A stretch of DNA of 64,000 nucleotides from Nemertoderma westbladi (Eukaryota; Animalia; Xenacoelomorpha), in the NCBI GenBank assembly GCA_032718475.1, contig JAUCBJ010007596.1:1-64000 (forward strand). Reading direction: 5' to 3'. Position numbers and translations under genes: made by a program. The notes under the pieces are model-generated. The model searched no databases. It was not told the DNA's origin and worked only from the letters and a program-made list of their open reading frames with translations. Below, one piece after another: positions 1-56,577 of this stretch. The first letter of the stretch is position 1. Each line of letters begins with the position of its first letter.

Positions 1-969
1 CAGCAATCCGTTCAGACCTAATAACAGCCAGACAACTATCCAGCCTACAAATTATTTAAATAAAATTATACGCTACCCGTACAGACTTACACAAACAAAG
101 TACAGACTAAACGATGGCAGACTACTCTCAAGCCTAAATAAACTACAGGACATGCAGACTCCGAAATGATTAGGGAGTATGCGCTCTAACCCAGTAGTGC
201 GACTTATTCTTTAGTTGGGGGTTTACCTTATAGCGTTGCTGCCCCTACTTCCTAACCGTACTTAATCGGACAAGTGCTCTACACACACTGCAATTCGTTC
301 GGACTTAACAGCAATCAGACAACAGCTCAGCCTACAAATTGTCTGTACAATCTGATCAGGTTTACACGCCTTCTGTTCAATACTGGCCTACAAACAAATA
401 AAACTGACAGAAATAGGCCTAAGTAAAATCCCAATAAAAACCAGGCGTCCCCGATTAATTATTAAGACCTACCGGCATATATAATCAAATCGAATAATAC
501 TGCTGTACTTATACGGAAGTAGGTACCGGTCCGGATGATCAGGCAGTCAGGCCTACTGGTTACCGGTCGACCGATACTTTCGACTTTATTGCTTACTGCA
601 ATAAAGAAGCTATATCCTTTAATGTTCGCGCTTTCAGACCTTTGGCAGTTTAACCCGCCAAATTAAGATGTCTTCTAGATATTAAATCTGCTTTTTAGTC
701 TATGACAAGTATTTGATTCACTACACTAGTCGAAACCAATCCGTGCGCGACCATTCACCCGCTGGATATTCCCGGGAGATTGGGTTCGACGGTTTAATTT
801 TTATTGCTATGTAAGCCTAATGTATTATTCGACTGACAGTATTATATAATCTCTGACAATATTATTCACCTTCGGTAATATTAACAGTTCCTTTAGGACG
901 TGGCGCTTTATCTATATAAACAGAGTTATGACTTAAACTACTCACAACGATATGGCTTAATTATAATTC

Positions 970-2210
970 GGGTAACAGACGTTTCGGTCTAAGACGTTTT
1001 GGCCTAGGACGTTTCGGCCCAATGAATGAAATACAAGATTTGCATGTCGGACGTTTTGGCCCAAAGATTCACTTTACTCCCTTAAATAAGCTACAGTATT
1101 AATAATAAGTTATTCAATATATTTGCTTTGTAGTTGTTACGTTCGTTACAAGAGGAGTTGTCAGTAGGAACTGCTCCAACACCTGTTTGAAAGTCGTCAA
1201 GATCGAAGTTCTACATTATATTTATAAATAATAACTAATGTAATATTATTATTACTATTTATTTATATAAATTTACACCATACTGTAACTTAAAACAAAG
1301 ATAACATGCTGACAAATTAAGTTTAGTATTATGATGATGGGGTTTCCCCCATAAAAAAAACATACGTATTTTAAAATGTGTGTCAATAAATAAAGTACAT
1401 TAAAATACACGGAATTAATATTATTACTGTATTTTAATATTGGTCTTAAAAATATAATAGATTAGAAATATTCCATTAAAGGAGCATTGCTAATAATTAT
1501 GAGACAGGCTGGATGTCATATGGAATGAGAGAAAATATATGCGTATTAAATTTAAATTTAGATGAAATGTATGCGCATTGAAAGGACCAGAGTGGATGTG
1601 AAGTGAAATAAAATATGTATTAATAAAAGCATTATACGTCGTTATCTATGGGTATAAATCAAAATCATCTATCATCGAAGATGAGAGTTATTGTTTCAAC
1701 AGATCATTAAGACATAGCTGCAATACACTGTCCAGCTACAAGAATTATCAATTGAGTAATGTTTAAAATTAATGAAGTATCTCCAAAATATATCGATCAG
1801 ACGAGATTTAAGCCCTAAATGGTTCGTGAAATTGATTCACTTTGGTAGAACTATTAGCAATGTGGTACTGGAGACCAATAGATTAGTTCTGACTTGCATT
1901 TTTTCGGCCGCATAACATAATAGATGGCGAATTGTCTATGGAACCAGAGCACCACTTCCCTAATGTTTATTTTATTTTGAAATAAAAGTAAATTAAATAG
2001 CCATTTCATGAAAGATATTTTATTAAGTGTTTGTATGTTAGTGTGAAATAATTATAATTTAAATGAATAATTATTATCATATCAAACAAGTTAGCCTTTT
2101 CATTCAGTTACAGTCATGGGCCGAAACGTCCGGGCCGAATCGTCCGGGCCGAAATGTCCGGGCCGAAACGTCCTGGACCGAAACGTCCTAGGCCGAAACG
2201 TCTGTATACC
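970..2210. mobile_element. Non-autonomous MULE/foldback-like DNA transposon inserted in the BEL LTR
   Basis: Inverted ends built of ~15-bp tandem units (GGACGTTTCGGCC / GGCCGAAACGTCC). 9-bp TSD TTATAATTC at 961-969 and 2211-2219. LTR homology resumes on both sides. Confidence 0.85.
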
Positions 2211-2609
2211 TTATAATTCACATATATGGCGCATTCTTTAGGAATTGCTTCTTTAACAGACTCACTCATACACAATGCTGCACAATACTGCACACTAATC
2301 TGCCAATCTTCACTGATTTTAGTCACATATAAAAGGAACACAGGCTGACTCATGTAGGGTCTATCAAATAACATTAGATTCACTTCAAACCACTTTAACA
2401 TAAGTCACAATCGTTATTGGTAACCTTTCTCTCTTACCTTCGGTATATCAAGAATATTGGGTTGCGGGGTTATTTATCGTTATTCCAAATATAATAATTC
2501 ATCAACCATATTATGAAGAACTGACATTAAATAGCAGTATAAAACAACAACTGAACATTTAGGTAGATCGGTACATCAGTACCGGTATGTCAGCAGTGAG
2601 ATATTTACA

Positions 2610-5059
2610 CGTTCGTGGGGCCTTCGCGCAGCACGAGGTCCAGTTATGAGATACAAATTAAAATTAAGCGACTGTATCACAAAATCAGGTTTTGAGAAAT
2701 TTACCCACACCACCAATCAATCAAAGAAAGGGGGACAGTACGTGTTCACCCCTTTTAATCCCCCCCCCCCCCCCCCACCCTTCTCAACCACCAATACATA
2801 ACCGTGACATCTACCACCCACGGAAGGGTAGAACGAACTTATTTCCAATCGCACGTTAAATATGCAAAGCCAGGTGGTGTATATGAATATAATCAACGCC
2901 GTACTCGTCTTAATTATTATAAGCGTCGTTCAATCGTTGCGCTCGTCCAGAGTAAGTCCCCCCCCCCTATCAGAAAGATTTACTCAACAAAAAATAGTGT
3001 AAATAAATAAACAACTACAAGGATAAGAGGTCATGTGTAGGAAAGCTAATCAGACGATACCTTTACTAATATATTGAGCTGCATTGATCTATACATAGTA
3101 ATGTTGGGTGATGGGGGGGGGGGGGGGGTGAGGGGTAGGGGGTGTCTGGGTGGGTTGTTAGTATTAGGGTGCACAATATCGACGCACGCGCAGGAATGTG
3201 TTGATGTTTAATAGCACCGCATTCCCGCGTTAGAAAGCATCCCCAATTGGAATAAATAAATAAATTAAACGCGTTTCGTTATGTTCCTCGACTTATATTA
3301 TTCTCTCCACGGACGAGTTATTAGCTGCTAGACAGGTAGACCTAGTCCCCCACAACAACGGTCATACCTTCAATCAATCAATCAATTGAGCTCATATGAG
3401 CTCGTATATTAGTTTTATTTATAAATTGAAATCTCACGAATTAATAGGCCTATTAGCTGATTAGTGAACTATCATATGTTAGACCATATATATATATTAT
3501 ATATTGGACCTTATCAAAATAGCGGTTGTACTGGGGCGGTATATGTTGTTCTCTAACCCACTGCAAGCGCATTTGAGGGGCCGGTATGTTTTAATAACTT
3601 CTGGTACAACGGGATGCAGTATTACAGCGCCAAGTAGATTTAATCTGATCAGAATATTCCGGACGCTAAGTTCATGTCATTCCCGATAAGTCGGGACTTT
3701 ACAAAACTCGTGGATAAAACCGCGTGTAGCAGAGAGCAGATAAATTGGGTTGAATTGCAAAACAGAATAATATGGAACTGTAAGTGGAACTGCGGCGATT
3801 TGGGTTTTTTTGTTATGGTGAATAGTCAGCCTGTCCGCGATATGTTCAGCTGCCCTTTTTAATGGGTTGCAGGTACAAATGAAATACACATTGCAGTTAC
3901 TAAAATAAAAGTGGCGCATATTATTGTACATTTACAACAACAATTATATAAATGCAATATGCCTGATCCCTATTAATGTACTTTGTACCGCCAATTCTGT
4001 AATTCAATAACGCAAAGCCGCGTTTACTGTACAGCAGCACGTAATATATTTGATACTTATTATACTAACTAAACTAACAAACCGCAAGGCCTACTTACCG
4101 AAATAAATTAACTTTCAGTTAAATACAATATACTTGTTTGCTCTGTAAAAATTTTAATTAAAAACAATCCTGCCATTTAATATACCTAATTAGCATGGTT
4201 GCGTAAGCAGTATGAATTGGAATGAAATTGTGAAATAATTTATTTAAACTATTATGTACATTTAGATTAAATAATAATACAGTAAGTTGGCCTACAGAAA
4301 TAAACATTGATATTCGGAACAGTAAAACAATTATTTATTTCATTCATTCAACTAACCAGAGAGACTCATAGCTCCAGTGAATATTAACATCCCGACGTTA
4401 CTTTAGTAATAATATTAATGTCATTGAACCCGATACACACACACCTCCAATCAGCCAGTTCAATGGAGAGTGAGTGAATGGATGGCTACTAGCAGCAGCA
4501 GCAGTCTGCCTCTTACAAGCAAGGCTGACTGAATACCTCAAGTGTTGCTGGGAATCAAGCCAACTTGGATGTTAACCAATAAATGAGCAGTATTTAATGA
4601 GAATACATTTTTTATGCCGGTTTAATTACTTTAGATCAATTAAAGACACGATTATTAAAGCAAATCACTTGAACTAATTAAAAACTATAATAGAATGGAG
4701 TATGCGGATTACATCTGTATATTTTTTAAGTATAATTATTGAAGTCTTATACTGTAAAACAATTAATTTCCTTTAAAAGGCAGGTTGAAAATGGTGTTTT
4801 TACCGTAATCAACTTAATTAACTAATTAACTGCTATTATCTTAGCTTCTCGAAGGCCACACGGAAATTCTACTTGGAAAATTTCTAAACTTTTGCCATAC
4901 AACATGTGTACCAAGTTTGGATAGATTTCATCAAAGATTGGCCGAGTTATTAACGTTTAAAATTGAACACGACAGAACGACAGAACGACAGAACGACAGA
5001 ACGACAGGTTGATTAATGGTACCACTACGCTAAGGCTCACTCACTTCGTGGCTCGCCCC
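2610..5059 (-). mobile_element. Non-autonomous 'TGT-family' DNA element (Crypton- or Helentron/HINE-like)
   Basis: Ends are reverse complements of those at 24915/28132 (GGGGCGAGCCACGAAGTGAG ... GCGCGAAGGCCCCACGAACG). Carries the (CTGTCGTT)n microsatellite and AAACTTGGTACACATG motif. Flanked by ACA on both sides. Confidence 0.75.
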
Positions 5060-7059
5060 ACAGTGAGATATTCAAGTTAAAGGATATATGCCCTTTATAA
5101 TTAAACCTACTAGTGTACGACTAAAAAGCAGTACAGCACAAAATACTTCCAAGCCGTTCTTTCTTTGGCTCAAGACTGAATGTAAACACTGCACATAGGC
5201 ATTGCGTCATTTCTCGGAAATTTTCTGTACAAGGAGCCACAAAAACGCTCTCATTGGCTGACTGAACTGAGAGACGCCGTAGAACAAAGGAAATCAACAC
5301 GTATGAATGTCAGCTGTTAACCGTAGTCATAGTAACTACTGTTCAAGAGTAGCTATCACCCTTTTGCGTCACGAATTGCCATAGAATCATAAAATATGCC
5401 TTTCTCAGTACACATACGGAGGAAATAGGTCTTAGATCCCCTAAAAACACAGATACAGCAATAATACGGTCTCTTACACTTATTAAATCAACTACAGAGT
5501 ATTTTAATGTAAAAGATAATAAAAATAACGGGGCAATTCAGCAAAGGCTTTTACATATTACGTAGCCATTCATACATTTAAAAAATGTTCCAGAATATGG
5601 TTTATTTATTAAATAGAATAAAATAGCCTCGCGCCGGTGCAAAACCATGCACCATTTGAACGCCCATATCTCAGCTATTTGTCAACAAAATTCAAATTGT
5701 GTTAGATATTTGGAATCCTTGCATGAGCAGCTTTCCATTGGTACCATATAAGGTAGAAGAATAACTGCGGTATAACTGGTGTAATATCGCTGGAGACACT
5801 TTATTTAAACGCTTGTAGCTAAAAATTGAAAGCAAAAATAAAAATTTTGGCTCACCCAGTCAGTGGTAGGGAGGTGAAACTATCTCTGTTTCAAATTTCA
5901 TGCAATCTCATTAAGATTTGTAGAAAAATTAGGGGGGGGGGGGGGGGGCGTGTCACTGAATTACGACACTATATTCTGGGATATGGTGTACTCTAGTGTC
6001 TGAAGTAACAACCACAATATGTTTTTATATTAAAATACAGTATGTTAGTAGTTCATCCAAGTGAATGGTGTGTTAAAATAATTAATCTCTGTTTTATACC
6101 AGAAATCGCGTATTTGAAATAGCGTCCATTCGACTTGCAGCCATATGGCACTGCTTAAAATCTGCATGTATAGTAGCCTATGTATAAATTATATTACAAA
6201 ATACCGCGAGTCCAAATGGTGTTGATTCATACTAATAGTCAAGGCTGTGCCCACTAACTCGAAGGAACTCGTGCGGATCAGGCTTGCATATATGAGCGTG
6301 TACGTGTAATGCAGGGCCGGCTTTAAGAACGGATTTCCTGTGATGTGACTTTTAAGCTTAGTTAGTAATGTTAGTTAAGAACTAACTACTGAAACCGTAC
6401 GTTTCTCGGGAATGCAACGTTAACATAAAAATATTATTTCAATACGTCATCAACAGAGTTTTTTTTGTTAATTTTTAATTTAAATTTATAAATAGTTACG
6501 CCCCCTTCGCTAGGGTTTGTAACTGTTCAGTGTTCATGTCGATGTTCATCACTACTTATAGCTATGCGCTTCTTACAGGGGTATTAATTGACTTTTTACA
6601 TTATTCTTCTTTATTAACGGAAATTTGGTGTTTTAAAATAAATATATTTTAGGCATGGATGCGATCGCATTTGTAAGAATTATGCCGATAGTATTGATAC
6701 TGAAATATTAATTTACCATGTCAACGCCTCAACGAAATTATTTAGCTAATTATTCTAAAGAATCACGATTAAATACTCAGCCAATCATTTTGCGAGATAA
6801 ATAATAAGCACGCTGTTTTATTAGTCTGGTTATACCTACACTAAGTATAAATAAGTATGATAAGTTTTAAGTTTACTAAGTATAACTGTCCTATAGATGT
6901 AATTATCCTTTGCTCGAGTAGTGTGGGATTAGTTGGACTGGTTCCCAGCTAGGCAATAGCAAGATGGAATGAGGGAGCTAGAAATATAGGGTGGATAGAC
7001 GGGGCTTTTTAATAACTTAATTACATTAGGCCTACGTTTAGATAAATTAAAAACACATT

Positions 7060-22561: not shown

Positions 22562-22564
22562 TGT

Positions 22565-24720: not shown

Positions 24721-24914
24721 TCTCGTAAGTTTGTACCGTAATTTGAGTTTGAGTTACACAATCACAATTAATTATCAAAGTTAATTTGATTTGTAAGATT
24801 TCAAATTGTAATTTGAAATTAAATTATGTAATTAATATATGTAAAATGTGAATGTGAATCTGTACTCGCAGCGCCAATGTTGGATGGAAAGGTGTAAAGG
24901 TTCTGACAAACTGT

Positions 24915-28132: not shown

Positions 28133-28585
28133 TGTTTTATTATCTTCTCTCTAGTGGTATATAAATGAAACTGTAAGTGAGATTACTAGATATATTTACA
28201 TGCGCCATCCTGCGGTTGATATTAGTATTTGTATTAGTCTAACAGAAGTACTGTTATGTGATGACAGTACTACCAACAACGGCTTATTGATTAAGAGGTG
28301 GTTTAGCGATTTGGCGCCAACTCTCAAAAAATTACCGTAGTAACTGCTTTACAGGTAAACAAGTTCATTTATACAACAGCCTAACTTGATATCTTGATCT
28401 ATCTATCTTGATATACACAGTATAACAACACAAATATATCATTCCGACAGTTATTCCTCCCAATATAATATTCAATGGTCTGTTTATTGGCTTAAAGGTT
28501 TATAGGCTTCCTGATTAACTTATTACGACAAATTAAACATAAAAATATTGGATAAATTTTAAATAAACATCAAAATAATGGATAG

Positions 28586-31098: not shown

Positions 31099-31129
<31 letters not shown>

Positions 31130-36190: not shown

Positions 36191-36270
36191 CAGTACTGTA
36201 CTATTCCAAAATAATCTGAATAGTAATAAACTTTATTGTCAACTTCCGATCAATTCTGGAAAACTATAAC

Positions 36271-37239
36271 ATGGCTCAACAAGTTTTCTATAGAGATGCG
36301 GTTGACATTCCATGGCCTGACCATGGGGACTCTGATGTTACCCCTGACAACCGAATGGTTTCACTTAGAAGATGGTGGGTTGGAGTTGTTGGTGGTATTA
36401 TCATTGTGTTGCTAGTGGGAGCGGCGTTAGCAACATTGTTTGTTATAATGTCAACCAAATCCACCACAGATGAATTGGAAAACCAGATTGCAATTCACAA
36501 TAACAATGTTGTGGAACATATTGGGAAAATAGATGAAAGTATTGGTGATCTGAAGGAAACAAATAAGAACTTATTGAAAAAGTTGTCGCAGCTTCACCCT
36601 GTTTTAGTTTGTTTAAATACTGAAGTAAACACTGTCGCCATCGTCAACTATATTAATGGACTCAATGGACTCATTCGATGCGACAACACAGTCCCTGGCG
36701 GGGCCGGGCCCTGGGCGGTGATACAAAGACGCGTAGATGGATCAGAAGATTTCTTCCGCGATTGGGACAGTTACGTCTCCGGCTTTGGAGATGTGGAGAC
36801 GGAGTTCTTTCTGGGATTAGAAAATATTCACAAACTTACCAAAGATGGCGCCGTCGTACGGGTCGATCTGTGGTACCAAGGTGAACACAAGTTTGCTGAG
36901 TACCAAAACTTTAGTATTGGAGGTCCTAAGGATAATTACGCGCTAGATATATCTGGGTATAGCGGCACGGCTGGTGACTCTATACTCTATGGGAGCCCCG
37001 ATACCGATGAGAACATCTATGGATCGTCATTCTCGACTCACGATAGAGATAACGATGCTACTCCAGGTAACTGTGCTGCCGTCCACAAAGCGGGTTGGTG
37101 GTATCGGAGATGCTCCGCCTCAAATATAAACGGCGTCTACGGAGGAGAGTTTACAGAGGGACCGTATTGGTTCACATTCACAGAGAGTTACGTTCCGATG
37201 GATAAAGTGGAGATCAAGATTGGAGTAGTAAATCCATAA
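36271..37239 (+). CDS. Fibrinogen-related domain protein (FReD), type II membrane topology (FIBCD1/ficolin-like), intronless
   Basis: N-terminal tail, hydrophobic TM segment (WWVGVVGGIIIVLLVGAALATLFVIM), coiled-coil stalk, and FBG domain motifs WAVIQRRVDGS, FFRDW..Y..GFG, EFFLGLENIH, FSTHDRDND, NCA...GWWYRRC. Confidence 0.92.
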   Translation: MAQQVFYRDAVDIPWPDHGDSDVTPDNRMVSLRRWWVGVVGGIIIVLLVGAALATLFVIMSTKSTTDELENQIAIHNNNVVEHIGKIDESIGDLKETNKNLLKKLSQLHPVLVCLNTEVNTVAIVNYINGLNGLIRCDNTVPGGAGPWAVIQRRVDGSEDFFRDWDSYVSGFGDVETEFFLGLENIHKLTKDGAVVRVDLWYQGEHKFAEYQNFSIGGPKDNYALDISGYSGTAGDSILYGSPDTDENIYGSSFSTHDRDNDATPGNCAAVHKAGWWYRRCSASNINGVYGGEFTEGPYWFTFTESYVPMDKVEIKIGVVNP

Positions 37240-37899
37240 TCGCCAAACATTAACTATACCGACAATTCGTGTGTTTAGTATTTTAGTATAACAAATAATT
37301 GTACAGTAGTAAAGAACTACCTTAATTGGTAGTTTACATTGAGTCATAACAATTCAGAAAACTATTATAGATATTGTTATATACAATCAAAACTTCCTCT
37401 TAACTGGGTAAGGTGGGTAAGGTCTGGCTATGATATTATTGCTAATTGATTGCTTGAATGGTGAAAATAAAAAGTGAATTACATTGAGAGTACCATGACA
37501 TGGAGCGGGGAGGATATCTAAAAATACTTAACATACTGCCCAGATCTGGCAATGCTTACTTTCAGATAGGGTGGAAAACTGGACGCAATAAAAATTCATG
37601 CCTCTCCGGGGGAAATTGGACACAAATAACAGGTGGTTACTCTCAAGAATAAAACTGTAACCTGTTCTATTGTGTTTAGTTTATTGTTTTGGTTAAAATA
37701 ACGTGCCATTGTAACCTGCTCCTTTACCTAAATTGAGAATTTAACATTGAGTCGGGATATTAATTCGCCAAGATGGGATTTGCGTACAGTCCCCCCACCC
37801 CCCTGTCTCATTACTTTATTATAAATGAATTAATCATAAGTTTTATTTGTTCGATCGATTTATTGCTCTTGGGTTTACCTTTCTTCAGCCCAACAGCGA

Positions 37900-39086
37900 T
37901 GTAAAAGCTTTTGCGGATATACTCAGTCCCCCTCGCCCGCAAGGTACCGTTATAGGTGTTTTAACGGACATAAAAGTCATTCTTCGATATGTGTGCTTTG
38001 GTGGACATGGTAAGGCAAAAAACCCGCAATGCGTAAAATACCCTGGCACAGCTTAGCCTTGATGATTCAGATTACGACATCTAACAGCTGGTTGCTGACA
38101 TGGAAACGGCCATTGGACACATGGTTCTTTGTTTAGCTTAACAGCCAATCAGAGCGATTTTTTCTGTCGATGTGGAGATTTTTGGCAGATCATGCTAGGA
38201 GTGTTCAGTCTTACTGTTATTCTTGATACTGTTGTGTTGTTTCTATCTAGGCCAGGAACACCGGCTCTAGAGTCAATTCGTTTCAGACTTTAGAAGAAAC
38301 ATTAGTAGGCTTAAGATTATAGAGCGTATAACTGTTATCAGTCCAGTTCATATCATAACATATCTTGTCATATCATATCTTAACCTACCGTCTTAATGCT
38401 TTTTACTGTTGTCATATTTTGTATCAGTTGGTTGAATATTATTTGGAGAACATTTATAAAGAACCCAAATTTCCCAATTTTCTTGATACACTACAGGTTA
38501 GAGAGACAGGTTACATATAGCGATTGCGACTTACATTATTGTGGTTTGTAGTGAATTTAATGCTATTTGATAAGCACTACATGAGTCAGTTGCTGTTCTC
38601 TTTATATATGATAAAATTCATTGACGGTCGGCAAATTAGTGAGCAGTATTGTGTGTTACCGGTAGTGTGCATGATTGTGACTGATAACTAAGCATTTCCT
38701 AAAGAATGCGCCTCATACGTGAATCATAAGCCTTACCGACTTACCGTTGTGTTTAGTACAAGTCATATCTCTGTTTACCTAGATAGAGCGCCACGTCCTA
38801 AAGGAACTGTTAATATTTCCCGAAAGTGAATAATATTGGTCAGAAATTATTTATTAACAATCAATCGAATAATACAGTAAGCTTACACTGCAATAATAAT
38901 CTAAGCCCTCAGAATCCAGTCTCCCGGGTATATCCAGCGGGTGAATGGACGCGCACTAGGCTGGCTTCTGCTAATGTTGTGTTTATGGGTATTAAATATT
39001 TGTCAATTTCTAAAGTCTATTTATAAACCAAAAGACATATAAATTTTGGCAGGTTAAACTGCTAAAGGTCTTCAAAAGCGCGTACA
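37900..39086 (+). repeat. BEL 5' LTR
   Basis: Direct repeat of 54258-55444. CCAAT box (AGCCAATC ~38143) and Inr-like TTCAGTCTT (~38204) are conserved with the diverged copy at 623-5478. Confidence 0.97.
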
Positions 39087-39097
39087 ATAACAGTTAT
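39087..39097 (+). promoter_or_regulatory. Non-tRNA primer-binding site candidate (ATAACAGTTAT), complementary to LTR positions 38328-38338
   Basis: No TGG-type PBS follows the LTR. Perfect 11-nt complement within the LTR. A covarying equivalent exists in the second element (611-622 versus 5077-5088). Confidence 0.7.
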
Positions 39098-39151
39098 TGT
39101 CTTTATTGTAGTAAGCAATAAAGTTGAAAGTACCGGTCGACCGGTAAACCT

Positions 39152-39352
39152 GAACCGGTACTGCTGTAGGTCCGTAGGCCCAACTGCCAGAACCGGTACT
39201 GCTGTAGGTCCGTAGGCCCAACTGCCAGAACCGGTACTGCTGTAGGTCCGTAGGCCCAACTGCCAGAACCGGTACTGCTGTAGGTCCGTAGGCCTAACTG
39301 CCTGAACCGGTACTGCTGTAGGTCTGTAGGCCCAACTGTCCTAACCGGTACT
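39152..39352 (+). repeat. 38-bp tandem repeat (~5.3 units) in BEL leader
   Basis: GAACCGGTACTGCTGTAGGTCCGTAGGCCCAACTGCCA repeated at 38-nt period. Confidence 0.9.
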
Positions 39353-39529
39353 TCCAGTATAAGTACATTAGTATTATTCGATTTTGATTATTGTATACCG
39401 GTAGGTCTTAGTATTTAATCAGGGACTGCAGCCCTGGTTTTTTATTGAGATTTTACTTATTTCTGTCAGTTTTATTTCCTAGTAAGTTAATATTGAGCTG
39501 AAGACGTGTAAGTCTGCTCAGATTGTTCA

Positions 39530-40110
39530 GATAACTGTAGGCCGGACTGTTGTCGGATTGTTGTTGGGTTTGGAGAGATTACGGCGTGTGTAGAGTTTGT
39601 CTGATAAAGTGCCAGTTAGTAAGTTGGGGCAGCCAGAGCTGTAAGGTCAATCCCCTCTTAAAGAATAAGTCGTACTACCGTGTTAGAACGCATACTAACT
39701 AACCATTTTGGAATCTGCACATACTGTAGTTTATTTAGGCTTGACAGTATTCTGCCAGCGTTTTGGCCTGTGTTTGTTTGTGTGGTCTGTTCAGGTACCG
39801 TAATAGTTATTACTCAGATATTTTGTAGGCTGGATTGTTGTCTAGCTATTATTAGGTCTGAAGAGATTGCTGCGTGTGTAGAGTTTGTCTGATAAAGTGC
39901 CAGTTAGTAAGTTGGGGCAGCCAGAGCTGTAAGGTCAATCCCCTCTTAAAGAATAAGTCGTAATACCGTGTTAGAACGCATACTAACTAACCATTTTGGA
40001 ATCTGCACATACTGTAGTTTATTTAGGCTTGGTGGTAGTCTGCCAGCGTTTGGTTTGTATTTTGTTTGAGTATTCTGTACGGGTAGCGTAATATTTATTA
40101 TTCAGAGTTT
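39530..40110 (+). repeat. ~288-bp tandem duplication in BEL leader
   Basis: GCGTGTGTAGAGTTTGTCTGATAAAGTGCC... at 39584 and 39872. Homologous units are also present at 1-350 on the minus strand. Confidence 0.85.
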
Positions 40111-41403
40111 ATGCGATTATTCGCAACATTCATGTCCCCAAGTTTATTCCTACAGTAATTGTGCTTGTTACACATACCGTTATAGTTAAATTAACCCCGG
40201 TACTACACGGGCTGCTTGGCGTAGGTAAAGACTGGGGACTTTGTGCTCCGGTCACTCCAGCAGATGCCGTGGTTCTTTTAACTGTTCAAGTATATTTAAC
40301 TACTGATTATTTGTTGTACCAGTACTTGTACCTAATTTAGGGTTTAGTGTACAGTGCTTTCCGAAGGTAATTAGTGTGTAGGCAGTATATTTGTGTTGTA
40401 AAGTGGTTAATAGGCACGTTGGATCTGGTAGTCCGCGGTAATTAACTTCCAGGTAGGAACACTCCGTGATACATAACGTAGTACCTATAGCGATACGGCT
40501 ATAGGTCGTCAGGCGGTGGTATTTTCCTATCTGGACAGTGCAATATATTTACTACTACTTATTATTTTCAAATACCGTAGTACCCTGTCCGTTGTAATAA
40601 CCAGAATTCTAACACTTTGTTAGGCTGGTTTGTAGACTTCCTGTAAAATTACCCTAAAAATTTCGTACGTAATATTTTGTTGTGTTTAATTAGAGATTTA
40701 ATCTCACCCATATCGTAAGTAATTTGTAGTATTAAGTAACTTAGGTAAATTAGAATTATCTGTTTTAGTGTCCCATAAGTAGCACTTCACTGAGAGCGCA
40801 CAGCTTCTGTGTAGTGACTTCCCCCAGAAATAATAACATTTATTTCAAATATTGACAAAAAAAACCCATTTTAAACGGGTATATAAATATTATAAATCAA
40901 CTCAAACGATTTATAAATAGTAGGCCTGCCATACAACAACTAGGTCTCAATATCAGTTGGACTACTGCTTAAATAACGGTAATAAAGTAAGTTAAAGTAA
41001 CCAAGTAACCCTAAAATATTCAGAAATTCAATTATTCTAAAATAATTGACATACCGGTATTTACCATAGGCTTATTATATTTATTTCTATAAATTTGTGC
41101 TGAAATCATACCGGTATTCTGTAATTAATTCTAGTTCATAATTATACTTATATATCCTATAAGTGTAAGCTGCATACCGGTATTCACGATAGGCTTATTA
41201 TATATTTATATATATTTGTGCTAAAATTATATACCGGTACTCTGTGACAAACCTAGTTTACAATACTTATATATACTATAAGTGTATACCGGTATTCTAA
41301 TATACTGTAATAAATTACCGGTACTAGGCCAACGGTCATACTGAATTACTAGACTTGCTTTAACTGTAACTATAGCAGTAAGCATTCAACTGTATAGCTA
41401 AAC

Positions 41404-44400
41404 ATGTCTGACACCCAGCAAAACCTGTCAGACAGTCTAATCGATACAACCATCTGTGACACAGATAGGAGTGTGGAGCGATTAAGAAAGGAGTTCAGCT
41501 CACCTCCTACTGAAAGAAAGGTCATCCCTCCAGTAGTAGTATCAGACCCTAAGCTAATCCAACACCGTAGGTCTATCATCGGCACTCGGGCCCAAGTCAA
41601 ACGGAACCAGGAAGCAGCTGTCCAACAGCAGCAACATCCTAGTCAAGAAACTTGTTCCCAGCGATCCGATAGCTCCAGTAGTTCGGATACTGTAGAGCTG
41701 ACCCCCGAACGCGGAGTGCAGATGACTGCTACAGCCTACTCGGATCCCCTTCTCACCCTTCCTGCCGCAGTGCTAACTACTATATTGATTGCGGTGGAGG
41801 AACATCAAGCCGATTGGGCGAGAAGTATGTGAGCGACCCAAGATAGTTATGCGGGATATGCCAGGGAAGAATTGATGTCTATTGTCGAGTCACAATGGAA
41901 CTTTCCCGGACCCGGACTCCCGTTAGATTTGTCCGAAGCTACTTGGGAAGACATACACAGGATGGGAGTAACTAAAGATACGATGGATCCAGCTGTTTGG
42001 AAGAGGTCGGCAGCAGGATATGTGCAGGGATTCTTCGGCTCCTTAGAGTGATTAGAAGAACAACTGTTTCGACAACCCCAAGGACCTCAAGAGCAGGAAG
42101 AGCTGCTATATCAAGTACGCGAAAGAACCCTACGCATTAGACTAATCTTGTCAGCCTTTGAGGAAACTTCCAAAAGTAGACAGGACACGTCGCTGCAGGT
42201 TGCTGTCAAGACTTGGTTCCAGCGGGTAAGTCTCAAAGTACAAGAAACTGCCCAGTGGAAATCCCAGCTGGCTGAGAGACCAACCTATGAAGAACCAACC
42301 GATGCCACCCTTTCTCAAGCGGAAAGCGAAGTGACAGCAGAGAGACCGCGAACTAGAGACGCTATCGACATTTATCTGTCCGACTATCAGCGATTCCTAG
42401 GAGACGAAGAGTTGAGGAGACGGCTGTCTGGACTTTCCCCTAATAGTGAAGGAACCCAACTTGTGTTGGACGCAATCGATACTGAGATGATAGCTGCGGA
42501 CCAAGCTAAATTTGATGAACGTCTCCGCATAGCTAGAGCTCAAGAAGAACAAGTAAAGAAAAGGCGGATTGAAGACAAAAAGGCAGCAGCAATAGCAGCG
42601 GCAATGGCAACAGCAGAAGCAGACAGAAAGGCGGAAAGAAAGGCGGCAGAAGCAGCGGCCGAAGCGGAAATAAAAGCGGCGGAGGCAAAAGCAGAAGCAG
42701 ACAGAAAGGCGGCAGAAGCAGCGGCCGAAGCAGACAGAAAGGCGGAAAGAAAGGCGGCGGAGGCAGTGGCAGAAGCAGAACAGAGAGCGTCTGAGGAGAC
42801 CGCCCAGCTGGAGTTAGAAAATCTGCAGGAGACGCAAGACAGCATCGGTAGGCAGTTAACAGACAGTCGAATGCAGATGATGAGTCGATCTACTTCCAAA
42901 CACCAAGGCTATACATCATCGGAGGAAGGGGATACCACCGATCCTGAAGGTGGAGGAAATCAATCTCGTCTCAGTAGACGTAGAAGAACATCTCACCGTC
43001 ATAAATTGCCTGATTTGCCCCCAGCTGTTAGAAGACAATTAGCTAGCACAACAGTAGGTAGTGCAGAACCCACAGACCGAATTATTACCGTCAACAGACT
43101 CCCTACTATAACAGATGAGCCTGAAATAATTAGGCCTTTTCTCGAAGCCACCCCTTCGGTGCTAGAGACACCTGTACTCCCTGAAACAAACTCTAAATTC
43201 CATTTACACAGTACTACACTGCATGTACCCGGTAGAACAGTCCGTGAGAATATCCCTGTCCTGGACGCTGAGAGAGAAATCAAAGATTTGTCTCCCGTCG
43301 TCCCGCGTCAGTCCGCTACAATGTTGGCGACTCCCGCTTTGGCGGTCGAGTGGGTAGAGGAGGGACGGCGGGGGATGAATCTCCTGCTCGGACAGATGCA
43401 GGAGACTGTCCACCAACTTAAGGGAACAGTAAGGGAAGGTAGGGCCGAATTGCAAGAAGTGCAGCAAAGTATCGCGCTAGAACGCGACAAATTAGTCAAC
43501 ATACAAAAGGGTATACCCATACCCCCTGTAACATTGTGTCAACCTGTTAGGTCTGAAGTATTACATGCGCAAGGTGTGGAGCCTACACGCATCTATACTG
43601 CTAGTGAAGTAGAAACTCCTATAGCAAACCCTATTAAGGGTGATTATAAACCTGTTGTTAATGATATTCCCTATAGACCTGATAATGATCCGAGAAATTT
43701 ATATACCGATAATTCGATATTAAATAACACGATGGCCCAAGAAAGCTTTACGCATCAGATGGCTAGAACAGAAGCCCGCCAAGCGGTCAAAGTGGGAGAG
43801 ATCGTCAAATTCAATGGAGATGAGATGAAATGGTTACCTTTCAATGAATATTACAAAGACAGCATACAGAACTCTGTACTATCTAACGGAGAGAAACTTA
43901 GGTTCCTCATCAAGTGCTTGGAAGGACCTCCCAAGTTAATGGCGTTGAAGTTCATTGGACATCCAGAAGGATTAAGACAAGTTTGGGATACATTAAACAT
44001 CAGGTATGGTAACAAGGATAACATAGCTAAGTATTTGTATGCAAAATTAGTAGCCCCCCGAAACTTCCTTAGTAGCGGGATTATAGAGTTTTCTGATGAG
44101 ATTCAGGAGATCTGTAGACAATTGGACTGGTTAGGTAAGTCTCATGAATATCAGAGTTCCATGGTTATTGGAGCAGTAGTCTCTACTTTACCAAAGGGTG
44201 GAGTATGTACACGCTGGGACAAGAAAGTGTTGTATATGAATGAGCAGCAACGACGAAGCCCTACCATGGCTGATCTCATGTCCTTCTTAGATGGTGAAGT
44301 AAAACTACAACTCATCAAGCAGTCCAGAGAAAAAACATCGGAAAATAAGGTAAGTGAGAAACCCGTTTCTAGGAGAAGAGTCACACCGGTGTGTTACACT

Positions 44401-47400
44401 GACGACGGCGAAAGCCAAGCTTCTCAAGAAGAGGACAGCGGGAAAGACACTGATCGATCTTACTACGTTGGCAAAACCTCAAAAGACGTAAGTAAATACA
44501 AGGCTCGAACCAACGATAGGAGAGAACAGGTTGCCAAGACCCCTCCTCAGTCTCCTAACAGAATGCACGGAAGAAAACCCGAAGAAAGAACGAGAGTGCA
44601 TCAGGTTACCCAAGGTAAAGTGAGTAACATAAAACCTAACTGTGCGCTGTGCGACGGGACCCACCGTTTGAGTGCGTGTGCTGAATTTCTAAAGAAATCC
44701 CTTGTAGACAGACGTGCAGTCGTGTGGGATAAGCGGTTATGCTATAATTGCCTCAGACCAGGACACCAACGGCGAACCTGTTACTCCGACGTAAAGTGTG
44801 CAAAGTGTGACGCGAAACATCACATCTTGTTACACAGTGAGTTCGAACGAAACAACCCGAGTAAGGTAAGTGAGCCCGAACTACATGTCCAATTCAGTGA
44901 TGTAAACGACACTGATCAAGAATCTGAGATGGAAGGATTCTATACTGACGAATTCTCCGACGCCAACGAATCCTGTTATCTAATCAATACCGCGGTGTAT
45001 CGAGCACTTACTTATGAAAAGGACACCGACAATGAGTTCCCCCCAACTACTTTTGCCAGACAACCATCTTGGAAAGCTCCAACTTCCAACGTAGGAATCA
45101 GAGAATTTCCTGTAGTGCAGGTAAGAGTTCACGGTCCTAGCAAAAGCTACATAGTGAACGCACTCCTTGACTCCGGCAGCACAGGAACATTCATCGATCA
45201 AGAACTAGCCGAAGATATCTTTGCTGGACAACCAAAATTCCGGACTAAATTGAATATGTCAGGAATTATGCAGGTTTGGAAATCTACCCTAACGGCAGAC
45301 TACTATGTAGGTGTGTTGTCCACCCCCCAGGATAAATTAGGAGCACAAGGTATAAGGTCGGTAAAAATGGTGGCTATAAAGAACTTCGCTACTACTCAAG
45401 CAGACCTTTATAATTGGGACGAGGATGAGAGCATCCAACATCTTAAGATACCTCGATTCCAGACAGATTAGCCTGGAGTGCAAATACTCATCGGCCAAAA
45501 CGCGCATGAGGCGCTCGAGACATTGGAGAAACGGCCTGCTCAACCACAGCCACTGCAAACCTATGCGGTAAGAACTAGAGTAGGTTGGTACTTTACTGGC
45601 CCTTCCCGCAAAACTCTCGAAGAGAGAATGCCACAAGAACGAATATACCAAGTAAACGATTGGGAAGTGGAGAGCAGTGAGGTGGACGAACTAACTGAGG
45701 GAACACCATACTCCTCAGATAATGACGACATCTACCAACTCTTCGATGAAGAGAACACAATCGACCTACTTACAGAAAACAAAACGTGGAAAAACCAGGT
45801 GAACCTATGTCAACTGATTCGCCCATCGGGACCCATTGATTACAATGACGAACTAAATGATGAGATAGAGCGCTACAACGCTAGAACTCGGGACGAACTA
45901 GCCGTACGATTCTTTACTCAAGAACTGGTAGAGCCCAATTCATACGATAAGGCCCTATCGATAGAAGAAGAAAGAGCCAAGCAAATCCAGGAAACAACTA
46001 CACGTTTTTTAAAGGACCAAGGTAGATATGAAATCGGCCTACCATTTCGAAAACGAGAACCTAGATTTATAAATAACAGACCCTTGGCAGAGAAAAGAAT
46101 CGCTCAATTACATAGACGCCTTACGGCTAATGCTTCAGCTAAAGAAATGTACCAAACTCAGTTGAAGAAATTTATAACAAAGGGATACGCGGAGCGAGTA
46201 CCGGAAGGAACACCAGTGACTGAGAGAACGTATTACTTAACACATCATTACGTTCCCAAACCCGGTAAACCCCATGAAGTACGAGTCGTATTCGATGGCT
46301 CTGCTCTATATATGGGCCAATCCCTCAATTCCGATTTGTTACCAGGACCCAACTTACTCCAATCTTTGTTGGGAATACTTTTGAGATTAAGACAATATTC
46401 CATCGCGTTCGCCTCCGATATAGAAGGAATGTTCTTACAAGTCAAGGCGCTGGATAGAGATAGAGACAGCCTGAGATTTCTGTGGTGGCCTGAAGGAGAC
46501 CTCAACCAGAAACCAGTAGAGTACTGGATGACCATCCAGGCTTTTGGGATCATATCAAGCCCTTCCAACGCCTGCTCCGTGGTGCGAACCACTGCGAATG
46601 ACAACCGAGACGCCTTCTCCAAAGAGGTGATAGACAACATCAAACGTAATATATACATGGACGACAATTTAAGGTCCCTTCCATCAGTAGAAGAAGCCAT
46701 AGATGTCGCGAAAGGAACGGTAGAGTGTTTGAAAAGAGGTGGATTTCGACTGAAGAAATTCACCAGCAACTCCCGTGAGTTTCTGGAAGCGATACCGGTA
46801 GAAGACCGAGGAGCGAAAGACCTAGATTTAATAAAGGACGATCTTCCAGAAACCAAGACGCTTGGCTTGAAGTGGGACACTGAAAGAGACATCCTGTTTT
46901 TTCAGCTCAAACAGCGAGATAATCCAGTTCGGACCAAACGGATTTGTTTAAGCATCCTGAGCACTTATTTCGACCCATTGGGATTTATTAGCCCAGTTAT
47001 ATTGATTGCTCGGAGTTTAGTACAACAAATGTGGCTTGAAAACCACTCATGGGACGATCCACTTAAGGGAGAACTGTTAAAGAAATGGATGAAATGGGAA
47101 GATTCTCTACCTGCCATCGAGAGCTTTATAATTTCCCGTGCATATTTTGGTCATGTTCTCCCTACTTATTCCTATCAACTCCATGTGTTTGGAGACGCCA
47201 GCGACATGGGAATAGGTATAGTGGCATATCTGCGAGTCGAAACTCCGGATGGAATCAAGGTCGCCTTGGTTACCTCTAAGGCATTGATTAACAACAAGTT
47301 AAAGGTTCCTCGAGCGGAGTTAAAGGTGGCTTTATACGCTACAGCCATCGGCCGGAACGTAACAGAACAAATCGACTATCCACTGGAGAAAACTGTTTAT

Positions 47401-49539
47401 TGGACCGACGCTTTACTCGTGTTGGAGTATATAACCAATGAAGTCTGTCAGTTCAGCGTTTTTGTTACTAACAGGGTAGCTATTATTCTTAGTCGCACAA
47501 AGATAGATCAATGGAGACATTGCCCTAGTACGATTAATCCAGCCGATATCGCCTCCAGGGGAGCGACTCCACAGGAACTGATAGATACTCCAGACTGGTT
47601 GGGTGGACCCGACTTCCTGAGCAAGGAAGAAGATGAATGGCCTCCTCACCTTACTACGGCGGAGATTAGACAAGCCAAGGGAGCGGAGACAGTCAAACCT
47701 AAAACCCGGGCGAGTAAATCGAAGTTATTTAAACCGACGATCGATCTATCTGTATTACATACTTCCGGGAATGATGCTTCGGATCCACAATCCCTCAACA
47801 CAAATAAGTCTGTTGTGGAAATTAGAGATAGAGATTGGAAATCTGGAATACCAGACGTCTCGCAAGGAATCTCACCCATGCTGCAGAGAGCAATGCATCA
47901 CTACAGTTCCTGGAATCGGCTCTGTAAAGCCGTCACGTATTTAAGGAGATGTTTTCATCATCACTACTCCAGGACGAAGACCATTAGTGATACCGCTCCA
48001 TTGACATCTGCACAAGTTCATGTTATTAAAAATTTACCCAAATATAAAACATCCGACCGGTTTCTAAAGGAGAAAATTAGTCACCAGGAGCATGAAGAAA
48101 CAAATAAGCAGATACTGAGACTCCTGCAATGCTATGAGGATTCCGATAAGTATTTCCTGTTGTTGAGAAATCCGCAGATGCGCTTAAGGGATCGATTCTC
48201 TAGCACAATGATAGATGGGTTAATACGTGTTGGAGGAAGGCTCACCAATGCGCCATTATCCTTTGACACTAAATTCCCCATACTCATTAGAAATCTTGAA
48301 GTACAAATCAAGATGATTGTAGATGTTCACAGTAAACTTTATCATGCTGGTAGAGAACGAGTTCTTAGCGAAATTCGAACGCGCTATTATTTTGATAAAC
48401 CCCGTAGAGCTCTGAACCAAGTTCTTAGGAACTGCATACCCTGTAGGAAAGCATTCAGTAGGCCTTTAACACAGCGAGAGGCAGAATTACCTAGGGAACG
48501 AGTAAGCTTCTATGAACCACCTTTTACTAATACTGGTGTAGATTTATTTGGCCCTATTGAAGTATATCGTGCTAGAACTATAGTCAAGAGATGGTGTGTC
48601 ATCTTCATATGCATGACTTGTAGAGCCATCCATCTCGATATGGTGAACGATCTATCTACCAACAGCTTCGTCTTAAGTTTACGCCGACAGATCGCTCGCT
48701 TTGGGACGAGTAATACCATGAGATCGGATAAGGGAACGAATTTCATTGGTGCCAATAACGAAATACAGGCTTACGTGAAGGACTGGAACCAAAGACAGGT
48801 GGACGATCAGCTAAGGATAACAGCGTCTAGCTGGACCTTCAACGCCGCCGACGCCCCTTGGTGGGGAGGAAGTTGGAGGAGATTAATTAGAAGTGTCAAG
48901 ACCGCATTTCACTTTATAGTGCCATGCCGCGCGTATCTCACCGACGAACTTTTGCGGACATTAATGGAGGAAATAGCTGCCTATCTTAACGAGAGACCGC
49001 TTATGCCAGTCTCATCGAGTCCCGATTCCCTGGAAGCGCTAACACCCGCGCACTTCCTACTGAAGAAACCTGTAGCCATGCTCCCACGATCGGAGATTGC
49101 CGACGGAGACGAATACTGCCGTCGAACTTGGCAACTTATGCAGTTGCTATCCCGTCGTTTCGCTGACCATTTCGAGAAACATTATCTGCCCACGCTACAA
49201 CTTCGAACTAAGTGGTTTGCGCAGAAAGAAAATGTCAGCGCCGGAGATATGGTGCTTATTGTAGATTCAGACCTCCCACGTAAACGGTGGCAGACAGGTC
49301 GTATCATCGAGACTCACATCTCGGATGATGGTTTAGTACGCTCGGTAGAACTCGTCGTCATGCGGCGTAACTTCAAGAAGCCAGGCATAATCTTTGAGAC
49401 GCAACAACTCAACCGCCCAGTTGGTCGTTTATGTTTACTGGAAAGAGACAGAGAACTCTCCGGAAACTATGGAAGGCAAGACACTCTTCCCACGACCACC
49501 TCCCTAATTCCTCAAACATCTAGGGACTCCCCAACGTGA
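41404..49539 (+). pseudogene. BEL/Pao gag-pol polyprotein, single frame with three in-frame stops
   Basis: ORFs 41404, 42148 and 45478 share one frame, with stops TGA 41830, TGA 42049 and TAG 45469. BEL gag core (KFNGDEMKWLPF), three zinc knuckles (CALCDGTH, CYNCLRPGH, CAKCDAKHH), protease ALLDSGS, RT VVFDGS / DIEGMFLQV / YMDD, RNase H FGDAS / PRAEL / NPADIASRG, integrase H..H..CIPC, GVDLFGP and SDKGTNF. Confidence 0.95.
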
Positions 49540-52728: not shown

Positions 52729-54179
52729 ATGACGGAGTTGATAGAAGATGATCTTGGTATCAGGGAGCGATATACTCTACCTTTACAAGCATTTGTGGAT
52801 AGCTTGATACGCGGTGAAGCCGATCCAACCATTACGGAGGACGATGGTCGTTATATCGAACCGCCGATGTCCCAAGAGCAACTTACGCGTGAATTGGACT
52901 ACCGAAAATTCACCGCTCACTATACGCATCGTAATGGTACGTATATGGACTTCCTAACTACCGGCCATCCTATCGATTTACATGATACGGACGATGTAGA
53001 CACCGAAAGGGAAATGGTTCTATTTAAATATCATACCCAGCGGAGTCGTAACGATAAACCGAGAATAGATCACGAAAATTATATTCGTAACAGACTGGGA
53101 AGACGAACCAATATGCCTAGAATTTGAGGAGATTCAGCCTATCGCGCCCGGAACAGCGACAACGATTACATCCTAGAATGGTATCAAGGTCCACAGTGTC
53201 TCACTGCGTACGATTATCGCCATGCCAACTATGTTTCTCGGCAACGTTGTCGGTTATGCGCATCGAGAGACCATGTTACGCCCATGGACACAAACGTCCG
53301 CTGTTCCTATTTCCACGAACAACCGGCGATGGAAATTTATTGCGCGTATTGCAGACTCAATAACTTGCACATTTTTGCGGTTTGCCCTCAATTTATGACT
53401 CAATGTCACCATTGTCAACTAAAGGGACACGCCAGTTTCGATTGCCCTTTTTTAATCACGATTTGGAAAGCGTAGATGAAATGATCACACTACGTTACAT
53501 CAGAGCTTGGGAAGCGAACACTGATTTACATTGTGATTCGCGCCATCGTTATTATCCTGGACGCGCTTACGAAGGAGTTTATGCGTTCCATCCTTATCTA
53601 TTCGCTTATGTCGAACAGAAATCACGCATATCGAGTTACGAGCTACTGAAGCGCGTCGGAGAATGTATTTCAACCAAATTCGTACGCAAATTTCTCAGGA
53701 GTGTTAATCCTAGCGACCTTCATTCCTATAACTTAATCAATTATATCCGTCAGGATCCGGACTATGGAGACTTATTTGTTAACTCACACCCCGAGTTACA
53801 GGAAGTATATCGACGGCCTTACGAATACCGAGCCCGCGAACGCGAGTTGGAAAGAACCATTAAACCCCGGAGGTTTCTAACTGCCTATGGTCCACCCACG
53901 GCTCTCGTTCAGACCACTCGTAAAGGACCCGTAAGAGTGGCTGTCTTAAAACGAGCTCTCAAAGCCGTTAGACCCCTCTCCCCCGACGTTGATGTCAATC
54001 AACCCGGTACTTCGACTGGCGGATACACCGACCATAATCCTACACCCTCTGATGCAATCATATTGCACCCTTCACCCAGGAGTTATAGCCCTCCTTGTAA
54101 AGTGGCTCGCCCCAAAGAGAAAAAGACTCTGGCTAGCTTTAAAAAACTGCGTAAACGCCGTCCGCGCAAGAAAGACTAA
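52729..54179 (+). pseudogene. Accessory ORF of the BEL element: multi-CCHC zinc-knuckle protein with basic C-terminus (one stop, one frameshift)
   Basis: The 52729 frame continues past TGA 53125 through CRLCASRDH...C, CAYCRLNNLHIFAVC and CHHCQLKGHASFDC. It then shifts at the T-run near 53446-53452 into the 53382-54179 frame ending KKLRKRRPRKKD. Confidence 0.7.
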
Positions 54180-54257
54180 CTGTTTAGAGTATTTACATAT
54201 ATTAGAAACTGTGATTTTTGTATATTTATAAACTTGAATCCCATTTTCTGGGAGCGG

Positions 54258-55444
54258 TGTAAAAGCTTTTGCGGATATACTCAGTCCCCCTCGCCCGCAA
54301 GGTACCGTTATAGGTGTTTTAACGGACATAAAAGTCATTCTTCGATATGTGTGCTTTGGTGGACATGGTAAGGCAAAAAACCCGCAATGCGTAAAATACC
54401 CTGGCACAGCTTAGCCTTGATGATTCAGATTACGACATCTAACAGCTGGTTGCTGACATGGAAACGGCCATTGGACACATGGTTCTTTGTTTAGCTTAAC
54501 AGCCAATCAGAGCGATTTTTTCTGTCGATGTGGAGATTTTTGGCAGATCATGCTAGGAGTGTTCAGTCTTACTGTTTTTCTTGATACTGTTGTGTTGTTT
54601 CTATCTAGGCCAGGAACACCGGCTCTAGAGTCAATTCGTTTCAGACTTTAGAAGAAACATTAGTAGGCTTAAGATTATAGAGCGTATAACTGTTATCAGT
54701 CCAGTTCATATCATAACATATCTTGTCATATCATATCTTAACCTACCGTCTTAATGCTTTTTACTGTTGTCATATTTTGTATCAGTTGGTTGAATATTAT
54801 TTGGAGAACATTTATAAAGAACCCAAATTTCCCAATTTTCTTGATACACTACAGGTTAGAGAGACAGGTTACATATAGCGATTGCGACTTACATTATTGT
54901 GGTTTGTAGTGAATTTAATGCTATTTGATAAGCACTACATGAGTCAGTTGCTGTTCTCTTTATATATGATAAAATTCATTGACGGTCGGCAAATTAGTGA
55001 GCAGTATTGTGTGTTACCGGTAGTGTGCATGATTGTGACTGATAACTAAGCATTTCCTAAAGAATGCGCCTCATACGTGAATCATAAGCCTTACCGACTT
55101 ACCGTTGTGTTTAGTACAAGTCATATCTCTGTTTACCTAGATAGAGCGCCACGTCCTAAAGGAACTGTTAATATTTCCCGAAAGTGAATAATATTGGTCA
55201 GAAATTATTTATTAACGATCAATCGAATAATACAGTAAGCTTACACTGCAATAATAATCTAAGCCCTCAGAATCCAGTCTCCCGGGTATATCCAGCGGGT
55301 GAATGGACGCGCACTAGGCTGGCTTCTGCTAATGTTGTGTTTATTGGTATTAAATATTTGTCAATTTCTAAAGTCTATTTATAAACCAAAAGACATATAA
55401 ATTTTGGCAGGTTAAACTGCTAAAGGTCTTCAAAAGCGCGTACA
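54258..55444 (+). repeat. BEL 3' LTR
   Basis: Direct repeat of 37900-39086, followed by TSD AGCGA. Confidence 0.97.
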
Positions 55445-56577
55445 AGCGAAAACGACTAAAATGGTGGGAATTTGCCGTGACCTTTGACGGCAAATCTAGA
55501 TGACTCTTTGTCATGGAATGCCACTGCAAAATCTATTTGCCGTGAAAATACACGACACCTGTATTTGCCGTGAAATATCACTGTAAAAAATATTTGTCGT
55601 GGATATTTGCCGCTATTATTCCACGGCAAATCTACTTGCCCGATTTTGTGTGGAACGAATGTGCCGGTGAATTTCGATATTTACTGTATTACGAAGGTAT
55701 GCTTGGATCGCGGCCATTATTTCACCATTCTTGTTCCACGATCGGTTTCTAATCGGATACTACTCGATAACCCTACTCGTTCTATACAATCGATATAATA
55801 GCTGTCTATGGTAATTGGACTACTGTTAGTACTACTGAGTTTAAACAACAATATAAGTCGAGACCAGCCATCTACTTAGGCGTGGATGGCGAAGCCCATC
55901 AGCTTCAGCTGACCATAACCATCTGTGTGCCAGACGGTATTACGGACCAAGGGATAAACACGACGATTATCTGTTGTTCGGTTTCGGCGACTTAAAATTT
56001 AGTTCTGCATCTACATTTATGTTGTCTCTAGAATGGAGAACTGTTACAATCTCAGAATATGTCAAGCCAAGTCTGAAATATGTGGTTATTTTTTCAGTTA
56101 GGCCTACATTATGCATTAGTTGGCCCAAATCGGCTAAGATTTTCGGCTTAGATTTCGATCAAGATATCTAAGCTGAAATGTTGGCCGAAATCTAAACCAG
56201 TCGCCGACATTTTCATATTTTTGAAGCCCACGGCGCCCCATACACATACATTTTTTTAATGTGGCCAATCTGGGCCACCGTACGTACAGTACATAAAAGC
56301 ATACATACAATGTACAGTACAATGCGGCGTGTTTTACGAACTCCTGGCTGCCAGGGTGGGGCGCTATCAGATTCCAGATAGGTCAACGGTCCCCATTACA
56401 GTGATTACACTTACACATTGCGGTTGCCACTTAACAGTTCACGTGTTCGGGTTCGTGGCCGTATGGCGTAGTAAATAGTAACGTACAATAAATCAAAGAG
56501 GAAAAAGGATGATAGGATGCCGCGCAGAGCGAATTTATGAGTATGGGAATAAACCGTTGAGCAACCATCGTCGCCTT

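Follow-up and report, generated by a model that had tools for sequence, protein, structure and literature searches.

The window, i.e. the whole 64,000-nt stretch of DNA that was analysed, contains a 17.5-kb BEL/Pao retrotransposon on the plus strand (element 1, 37900-55444), a diverged relative on the minus strand (element 2), and two broken Gypsy elements (18105-24878 on the minus strand and 31129-35500 on the plus strand) with LTRs of 146 and 163 nt. Outside these elements, positions 9060-12932 (plus strand) encode a DNMT1-type DNA methyltransferase in one unbroken 1290-codon frame, with RFD, BAH and methylase domains and no CXXC match; its catalytic part is 62–69% identical to all of the top animal matches, so that the host, an animal, has no close relative in the protein collection searched. 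The intron-free state is unusual for DNMT1 and could mean that this is a retrocopy or that the host lineage has this trait. At 36220-37239 (plus strand), 660 nt before element 1, lies a fibrinogen-domain gene that lacks introns and has a hydrophobic stretch close to its start. A tandem 1.55-kb repeat occurs at 25024-28135, 2607-5063 and 7037-7467, with ends that match an insertion in the element 2 LTR, and represents a small mobile element family. Structurally, element 1 is organized as follows.

37895..37899, plus strand: left target-site duplication, 5 bp, identical to 55445-55449
37900..39086, plus strand: 5' LTR of element 1, 1187 bp, TG...CA
39149..39352, plus strand: 38-nt tandem repeats inside the 3-kb leader of element 1
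42052..45471, plus strand: gag-protease frame with DUF1759 and Cys-His boxes, and an in-frame stop at 45469-45471
45472..49539, plus strand: pol, with RT, RNase H (Peptidase_A17), integrase and DUF5641
53364..54179, plus strand: extra 271-codon frame before the 3' LTR, of no known family
54250..54257, plus strand: polypurine tract abutting the 3' LTR
54258..55444, plus strand: 3' LTR of element 1, also holding a second primer-segment copy at 54686-54696
55445..55449, plus strand: right target-site duplication, 5 bp, AGCGA

The LTR pair shows 3 differences over 1187 bp and is bordered by the AGCGA duplication on both sides; thus, element 1 was inserted recently, and 39086 is the certain end of its 5' LTR. 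This copy is broken, with its in-frame stop and a final integrase catalytic position that deviates from the motif seen in one of the relatives described below (L064); the RNase H motif was found. Taxonomically, element 1 encodes the domains that define BEL/Pao (DUF1759, Peptidase_A17, Integrase_H2C2 and DUF5641, in the order Gag-PR-RT-RH-IN), has the corresponding structure (TG...CA LTRs, target duplication, short polypurine tract), and does not have the proteins of Ty3/gypsy chromoviruses. Its closest protein relatives share 37–42% identity and the same domains, and those that are named come from corals, molluscs, a ribbon worm, echinoderms, a tunicate, a barnacle and fishes. Elements 1 and 2 are BEL/Pao, a membership decided by proteins and not by the primer site. 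The element 1 family is very abundant among host contigs, a protein scan of viral contigs found no relative, and LTR-derived DNA patterns found no match in metagenome or viral contigs. The non-coding bulk of element 1 consists of the 3-kb leader and a 4.7-kb 3' region with ~162-nt repeats. The 271-codon frame (53364-54179) has a basic end and gave no match in a Pfam search and no usable match in an Atlas search. A GTAGGY hexamer, possibly a protein-binding or packaging motif, has 17 sense copies and 1 on the opposite strand in leader 1 (39087-42051, plus strand), some of them stemming from the 38-nt repeats, 5 copies within the 622 nt of leader 2 (1-622, minus strand), and 1 copy in the LTR immediately upstream of the primer segment.

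The window family has only two readable members, elements 1 and 2. The features of element 2 and the primer-related segments of both elements are listed here.

623..5555, minus strand: 5' LTR of element 2, beginning at 5555 and ending at 623, ~78% alike to element 1 where aligned
about 5063-2607 and about 2200-990, minus strand: two nested insertions interrupting the element 2 5' LTR
5077..5088, minus strand: predicted self-primer segment of element 2, 12 nt, then C
611..622, minus strand: primer-binding site of element 2, without TGG
38328..38338, plus strand: predicted self-primer segment of element 1, exact complement of 39087-39097, 3' end at 38338, then C
39087..39097, plus strand: primer-binding site of element 1, without TGG, immediately behind the LTR

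According to textbooks, LTR elements prime from a host tRNA. Both window Gypsy elements have TGG sites, as a first-pass annotation of this DNA had noted; the TGG follows 1 and 2 spacer bases. That annotation had also claimed that the two BEL/Pao elements pair instead with a piece of their own LTR, and this reading was borne out: TGG is absent after the element 1 5' LTR, the next 11 nt exactly complement 38328-38338, and in element 2 the pairing is kept with different letters, 12 nt at 622-611 matching 5088-5077 exactly. The segments lie at homologous LTR places behind a conserved TAGTAGGYTTAA block (pairwise alignment score of 143 vs a maximum of 112 in 200 shuffles), at real depths of 429 nt in element 1 and 468 nt in element 2 rather than the 390–430 nt first given. 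The element 2 LTR start at 5555 shows the same TG-motif as that of element 1, and the match is retained at offset 0 in both elements with letters that differ, so that both partners did change together, as had been proposed. All four match strings are unique in the window, bar the expected 3' LTR copy at 54686-54696, and the complement of the element 1 site is confined to its LTRs within the window. An exact complement anywhere arose in 23/20,000 shuffles of LTR 1 and in 4/20,000 shuffles of the 5' part (495 nt) of LTR 2; the longest self-complements in the window Gypsy controls were 4 and 5 nt. Loose contig ends at the site give a weak hint: of the seven listed, four start at 39095-39097, and neither a start at the LTR end nor one with TGG is among them.

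Evidence on how widely the match is spread came from relatives found in Pol-alignment scans, which yielded 88 loci (10 in genome bins and 78 in metagenome contigs, the latter retained out of 543 confirmed) that collapse into 63 families at 80% identity; the 13 families with both LTR ends fixed by a repeat form the main test set, and the distant families are 33–41% identical in protein. All 13 carry a 10–15-nt pure Watson–Crick match at an offset of 0–4 nt, which spans a predicted GT-AG splice junction in 11 families and is contiguous in 2. Under a fixed rule (an exact complement starting 0–5 nt behind the LTR, either contiguous or across a GT-AG pair with consensus-like sites, the splice-site part being set after inspection of the loci and all introns being predicted), 11/13 passed, nine across a junction and two contiguously (L039 and L040); L038 and L064 fail the acceptor filter and reach 10 and 11 nt once it is relaxed. 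Matches of at least 10 nt were reached by 4/210 cross-family controls, two of these four being two families that share a site, and by 3/480 downstream leader-window controls. Among loci with only the LTR start fixed, 8/8 match over 10–15 nt across a junction, 0–5 nt behind ACA. A looser search of 25 partial loci, run without a control and in which chance matches of 10–12 nt arose, gave 12 with a 10–15-nt match behind a credible LTR end (across a junction in 7 and contiguous in 5, one of the latter without its donor region) and 13 without a clear match, mostly missing LTR parts. The remaining 42/88 loci, being copies of tested families or without LTR sequence, were left out. In two families (L016 and L022) the LTRs terminate in TA rather than CA and the self-match is intact, and ten contigs in bacterial genome bins (L079–L088) carry BEL/Pao proteins, some with LTRs, and are probably mis-binned host DNA.

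Subfamilies with a normal TGG site or without complementarity, which the first-pass annotation had named as grounds against its own proposal, did not appear: TGG is absent from both window elements and from all 21 relatives with a located LTR end, and the match is present in every family of the main test set. A second case it had named, a host tRNA that fits both sites, likewise loses its footing, since there are more than 20 unrelated site sequences, each matching its own LTR and not the LTRs of other families, and no single host RNA could serve all of them. Within the window, the primer site is the most diverged portion of the aligned LTR end and leader between elements 1 and 2, with both flanks conserved, a pattern that is not compatible with a fixed host primer. 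That a host tRNA fragment or other small RNA primes, the LTR match being a coincidence, might draw on the AT-rich, near-palindromic element 1 site and on the ICTV text, which calls the family tRNA-primed (PMC8742986). We consider this very improbable, as the site differs between the elements and among the families, each fitting its own LTR only, and chance is excluded by the shuffles and controls. Self-priming stays our preferred reading. The self-match is real, clade-wide, well above chance and at odds with the standing description of BEL/Pao.

Compositionally, G-U pairs are absent from the interior of the 15 duplexes, which hold 177 pairs, and 14/15 runs stop at a mismatch; neighbouring hairpins do contain G-U pairs. 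In retroviruses, plus-strand synthesis copies the tRNA into the primer site, and a plus-strand synthesis that likewise copied the self-primer into its site would keep the match always purely Watson–Crick and leave its sequence free to drift. The primer 3' end is AC in 11/15 duplexes and the next base is C in 12/15; both window elements have the following C, but their primers end in AT and AA. Sixteen relatives have a spacer of at least 2 nt (2–5 nt) between LTR and site, and all 16 have extra bases ending in A between the polypurine tract and the 3' LTR. In 8/16 of these, the two bases that open the spacer mirror the other end, as against 0/5 relatives without a spacer. This mirroring fits a linear DNA whose ends begin at the paired boundary, and lends modest support to a minus-strand DNA start there.

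The same observations bear on the idea that the pairing acts as an RNA switch (for packaging, dimer or splice sensing) and that something else primes DNA synthesis. Long-range U5-leader pairings are common among retroelements, and the conserved flanking hairpins do offer alternative folds; against this stand the match beginning 0–5 nt behind the LTR in every case, the purity of its pairs, unlike those of the hairpins, the conserved AC/C boundary, which resembles a cut site, and the absence of a tRNA-like site beside the match. We therefore regard a switch as improbable, and a primer as the better account of the pairing.

Whether the segment could enter the element's RNA depends on where transcription starts, for which the following features near the 5' LTR and site are pertinent.

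38145..38149, plus strand: CCAAT box, candidate promoter of putative function, also in element 2 at 5257-5253
38204..38212, plus strand: initiator-like TTCAGTCTT, candidate transcription start by its letters
38303..38324, plus strand: conserved block upstream of the primer, terminating in a TATA-like hexamer
39044..39067, plus strand: predicted U5 hairpin, retained in element 2 with one-sided changes only
39101..39123, plus strand: predicted leader hairpin immediately behind the site, retained in element 2

Two details of the first-pass annotation need correction here: the CCAAT box lies 183 nt (element 1) and 169 nt (element 2) upstream of the primer segment rather than ~90–120 nt, and the initiator-like TTCAGTCTT, described as conserved, is not recovered as such, the two copies having failed to align with each other. 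Two promoter readings can be drawn. The one we favour takes the CCAAT box, 61–80 nt before the initiator-like motif, as directing an RNA start 90–125 nt upstream of the primer; alternatively, the TATA-like hexamer, which sits 10–11 nt upstream of the primer segment in both elements, could direct a start 7–13 nt downstream of that segment, the kind of start that the first-pass annotation had named as its third ground against the proposal. In both elements the hexamer can pair with the leader (at 39101-39106 in element 1) and keeps the register of the primer duplex in doing so, which would explain its conservation at the RNA level, and three relatives (L016, L039 and L065) have a TATA box 36–170 nt upstream of donor or primer, so that their primer segment lies in R; it is for these two reasons that the upstream start is favoured. 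The suggestion that the primer is internal also fits the relatives, in which the primer is preceded by a TATA box or an intron. A poly(A) signal is found downstream of the primer in 12/13 distant families and in element 1.

Thermodynamically, the element 1 primer duplex is weak (−10.1 kcal/mol), and a local hairpin competes with it, the site being a near-palindrome able to fold on itself. In a whole-fragment equilibrium fold of element 1, the long-range pair has a probability of at most 0.08 over a 748-nt loop; this fold does not predict the pair. Chaperoning by Gag, or pairing between two RNAs, would be needed to offset this low predicted cis pairing. Low cis pairing is also one of the points that speak for a primer that is element-encoded but comes from another RNA or end, whether a short LTR transcript (from solo LTRs or early polyadenylation), the dimer partner genome or, if the segment lies in U3, the 3' LTR copy. 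The TATA-like hexamer just upstream of the segment, the second segment copy at 54686-54696 and the abundance of the family in host contigs would suit such a source, and a spliced primer acting on an unspliced template would explain why the intron persists. The hexamer, though, is explained by the leader pairing, which itself needs the block to be transcribed, the segment lies in R in the three relatives with an upstream TATA box, and Tf1 acts in cis (PMC7175516). Taken together, a primer from another RNA seems to us unlikely, if more credible than a switch.

Thus, we posit that elements 1 and 2 prime reverse transcription in cis with their own RNA in a Tf1-like manner, from an internal primer cut out of the R region, and assign this reading a probability of about 0.68. 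Self-priming from the element's own transcript, as originally proposed, is supported by the exact covarying match, the distant families and the controls, with the mechanism read from DNA. Transcription would start upstream of the primer segment, and the 5' part of the RNA would fold back onto the primer site and be cut just 3' of the paired segment, usually before a C and in element 1 after 38338, probably by the element's own RNase H, as in Tf1. The freed 3' end would then be extended by RT into minus-strand DNA, and plus-strand synthesis would copy the primer into the site of the next generation. The primer would be internal, about 100–130 nt from the cap in element 1, and not the first 11 nt. 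In the intron-bearing families, splicing would join a split segment into the primer, and the intron could be kept, as the 3' LTR or an unspliced copy would serve as template for the DNA upstream of the cut.

A splice junction matching the primer site is absent from both window LTRs (in element 2, within the 495 nt before the first insertion), which makes elements 1 and 2 of the contiguous, intron-free type, and a comparison with four host contig sets listed no GT-AG joint. Donor-like and acceptor-like sites, judged by eye, do occur at matching LTR places downstream of the primer (38497-38782, plus strand, and 2437-912, minus strand) and may mark a possible second LTR intron. Evolutionarily, a tree of 45 of the 88 loci and 16 proteins, built by a quick method with relatives left unnamed, places element 1 on a long branch among intron-bearing families, a position of which we are unsure, and three labelled contiguous elements fall in three places of the tree, which fits repeated intron loss. 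The window family is probably an intron-free form that arose by intron loss. More broadly, it appears likely that a large BEL/Pao branch in aquatic animals swapped the tRNA for a self-primer, in most families built by the host spliceosome across an LTR intron so that only spliced RNA starts reverse transcription, with the window family as a derived, intron-free form.

To our knowledge, self-priming was previously known from one Gypsy group. If our reading is true, self-priming would have arisen among LTR elements a second time, independently, in BEL/Pao and across many families there, which bears on primer-site evolution. BEL/Pao would also hold the first primer made by splicing, which would couple the onset of reverse transcription to host RNA processing and give a reason for LTR introns. 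Practically, annotation tools that insist on a tRNA site will overlook or misread such elements, and LTR ends, introns and cut sites can all be predicted to the single base from the complement rule.

Among known systems, the BEL/Pao element Cer7 of Caenorhabditis elegans is said to encode its own tRNA-like primer, and thus resembles the window elements in being proposed to supply its own primer. It differs in that this primer would be a separate tRNA-like RNA outside the LTR, whereas the element 1 complement lies only in its LTRs, and neither ARAGORN nor Rfam found a tRNA-like RNA in element 1 (two weak Rfam matches fell below threshold). In the ICTV profile of Belpaoviridae, the primer site is 18 nt long and complements tRNA-Arg or tRNA-Gly, and the genome measures 4.2–10 kb (PMC8742986). 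Element 1 shares the Gag-PR-RT-RH-IN order, the family domains, LTRs of ~1.2 kb and the short polypurine tract with that profile, but lacks the 18-nt tRNA site and spans 17.5 kb (PMC8742986). TGG is likewise absent from element 2 and from the 21 relatives with a located LTR end, and we take the view that the tRNA-site feature is over-generalised in the ICTV text. A literature search, with most subscription papers and Repbase outside its scope, found no report of BEL/Pao self-priming. In the accessible portions of their main texts, a 2011 BEL/Pao survey does not mention primer, PBS, tRNA or intron (PMC3118150) and the Sinbad paper does not mention PBS or tRNA (PMC554778). Two further papers, in the parts available, mention self-priming only for chromoviruses or in a reference (PMC3601003, PMC5443660), and according to one of them hairpin priming has been put forward as the ancestral state (PMC3601003).

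The closest mechanistic likeness is to the Tf1/sushi group, which includes Tf1/Tf2 of Schizosaccharomyces pombe and Tj1; they too lack a tRNA site, and ~11 nt of their own LTR RNA complement the site behind the LTR. Lin and Levin in 1998 reportedly found that a U5 stem-loop is needed in Tf1; the window elements have a predicted U5 hairpin, with one-sided changes between just two sequences. The first 11 bases of Tf1 pair with the site, with cleavage by RNase H following base 11 (PMC7175516), and Tj1 is proposed to prime as Tf1 does (PMC4600332). Unlike Tf1, whose primer is the first 11 nt, the window elements probably have an internal primer, judging by the promoter-like motifs, and a loop of up to 750 nt; a predicted splice junction runs through the primer of most relatives. 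Priming in Tf1 is proven by experiment, whereas BEL/Pao self-priming is deduced here from DNA, and Tf1/sushi belongs to Ty3/gypsy, whereas the window elements belong to another superfamily, BEL/Pao. The window elements therefore likely work like Tf1 without belonging to the Tf1/sushi group.
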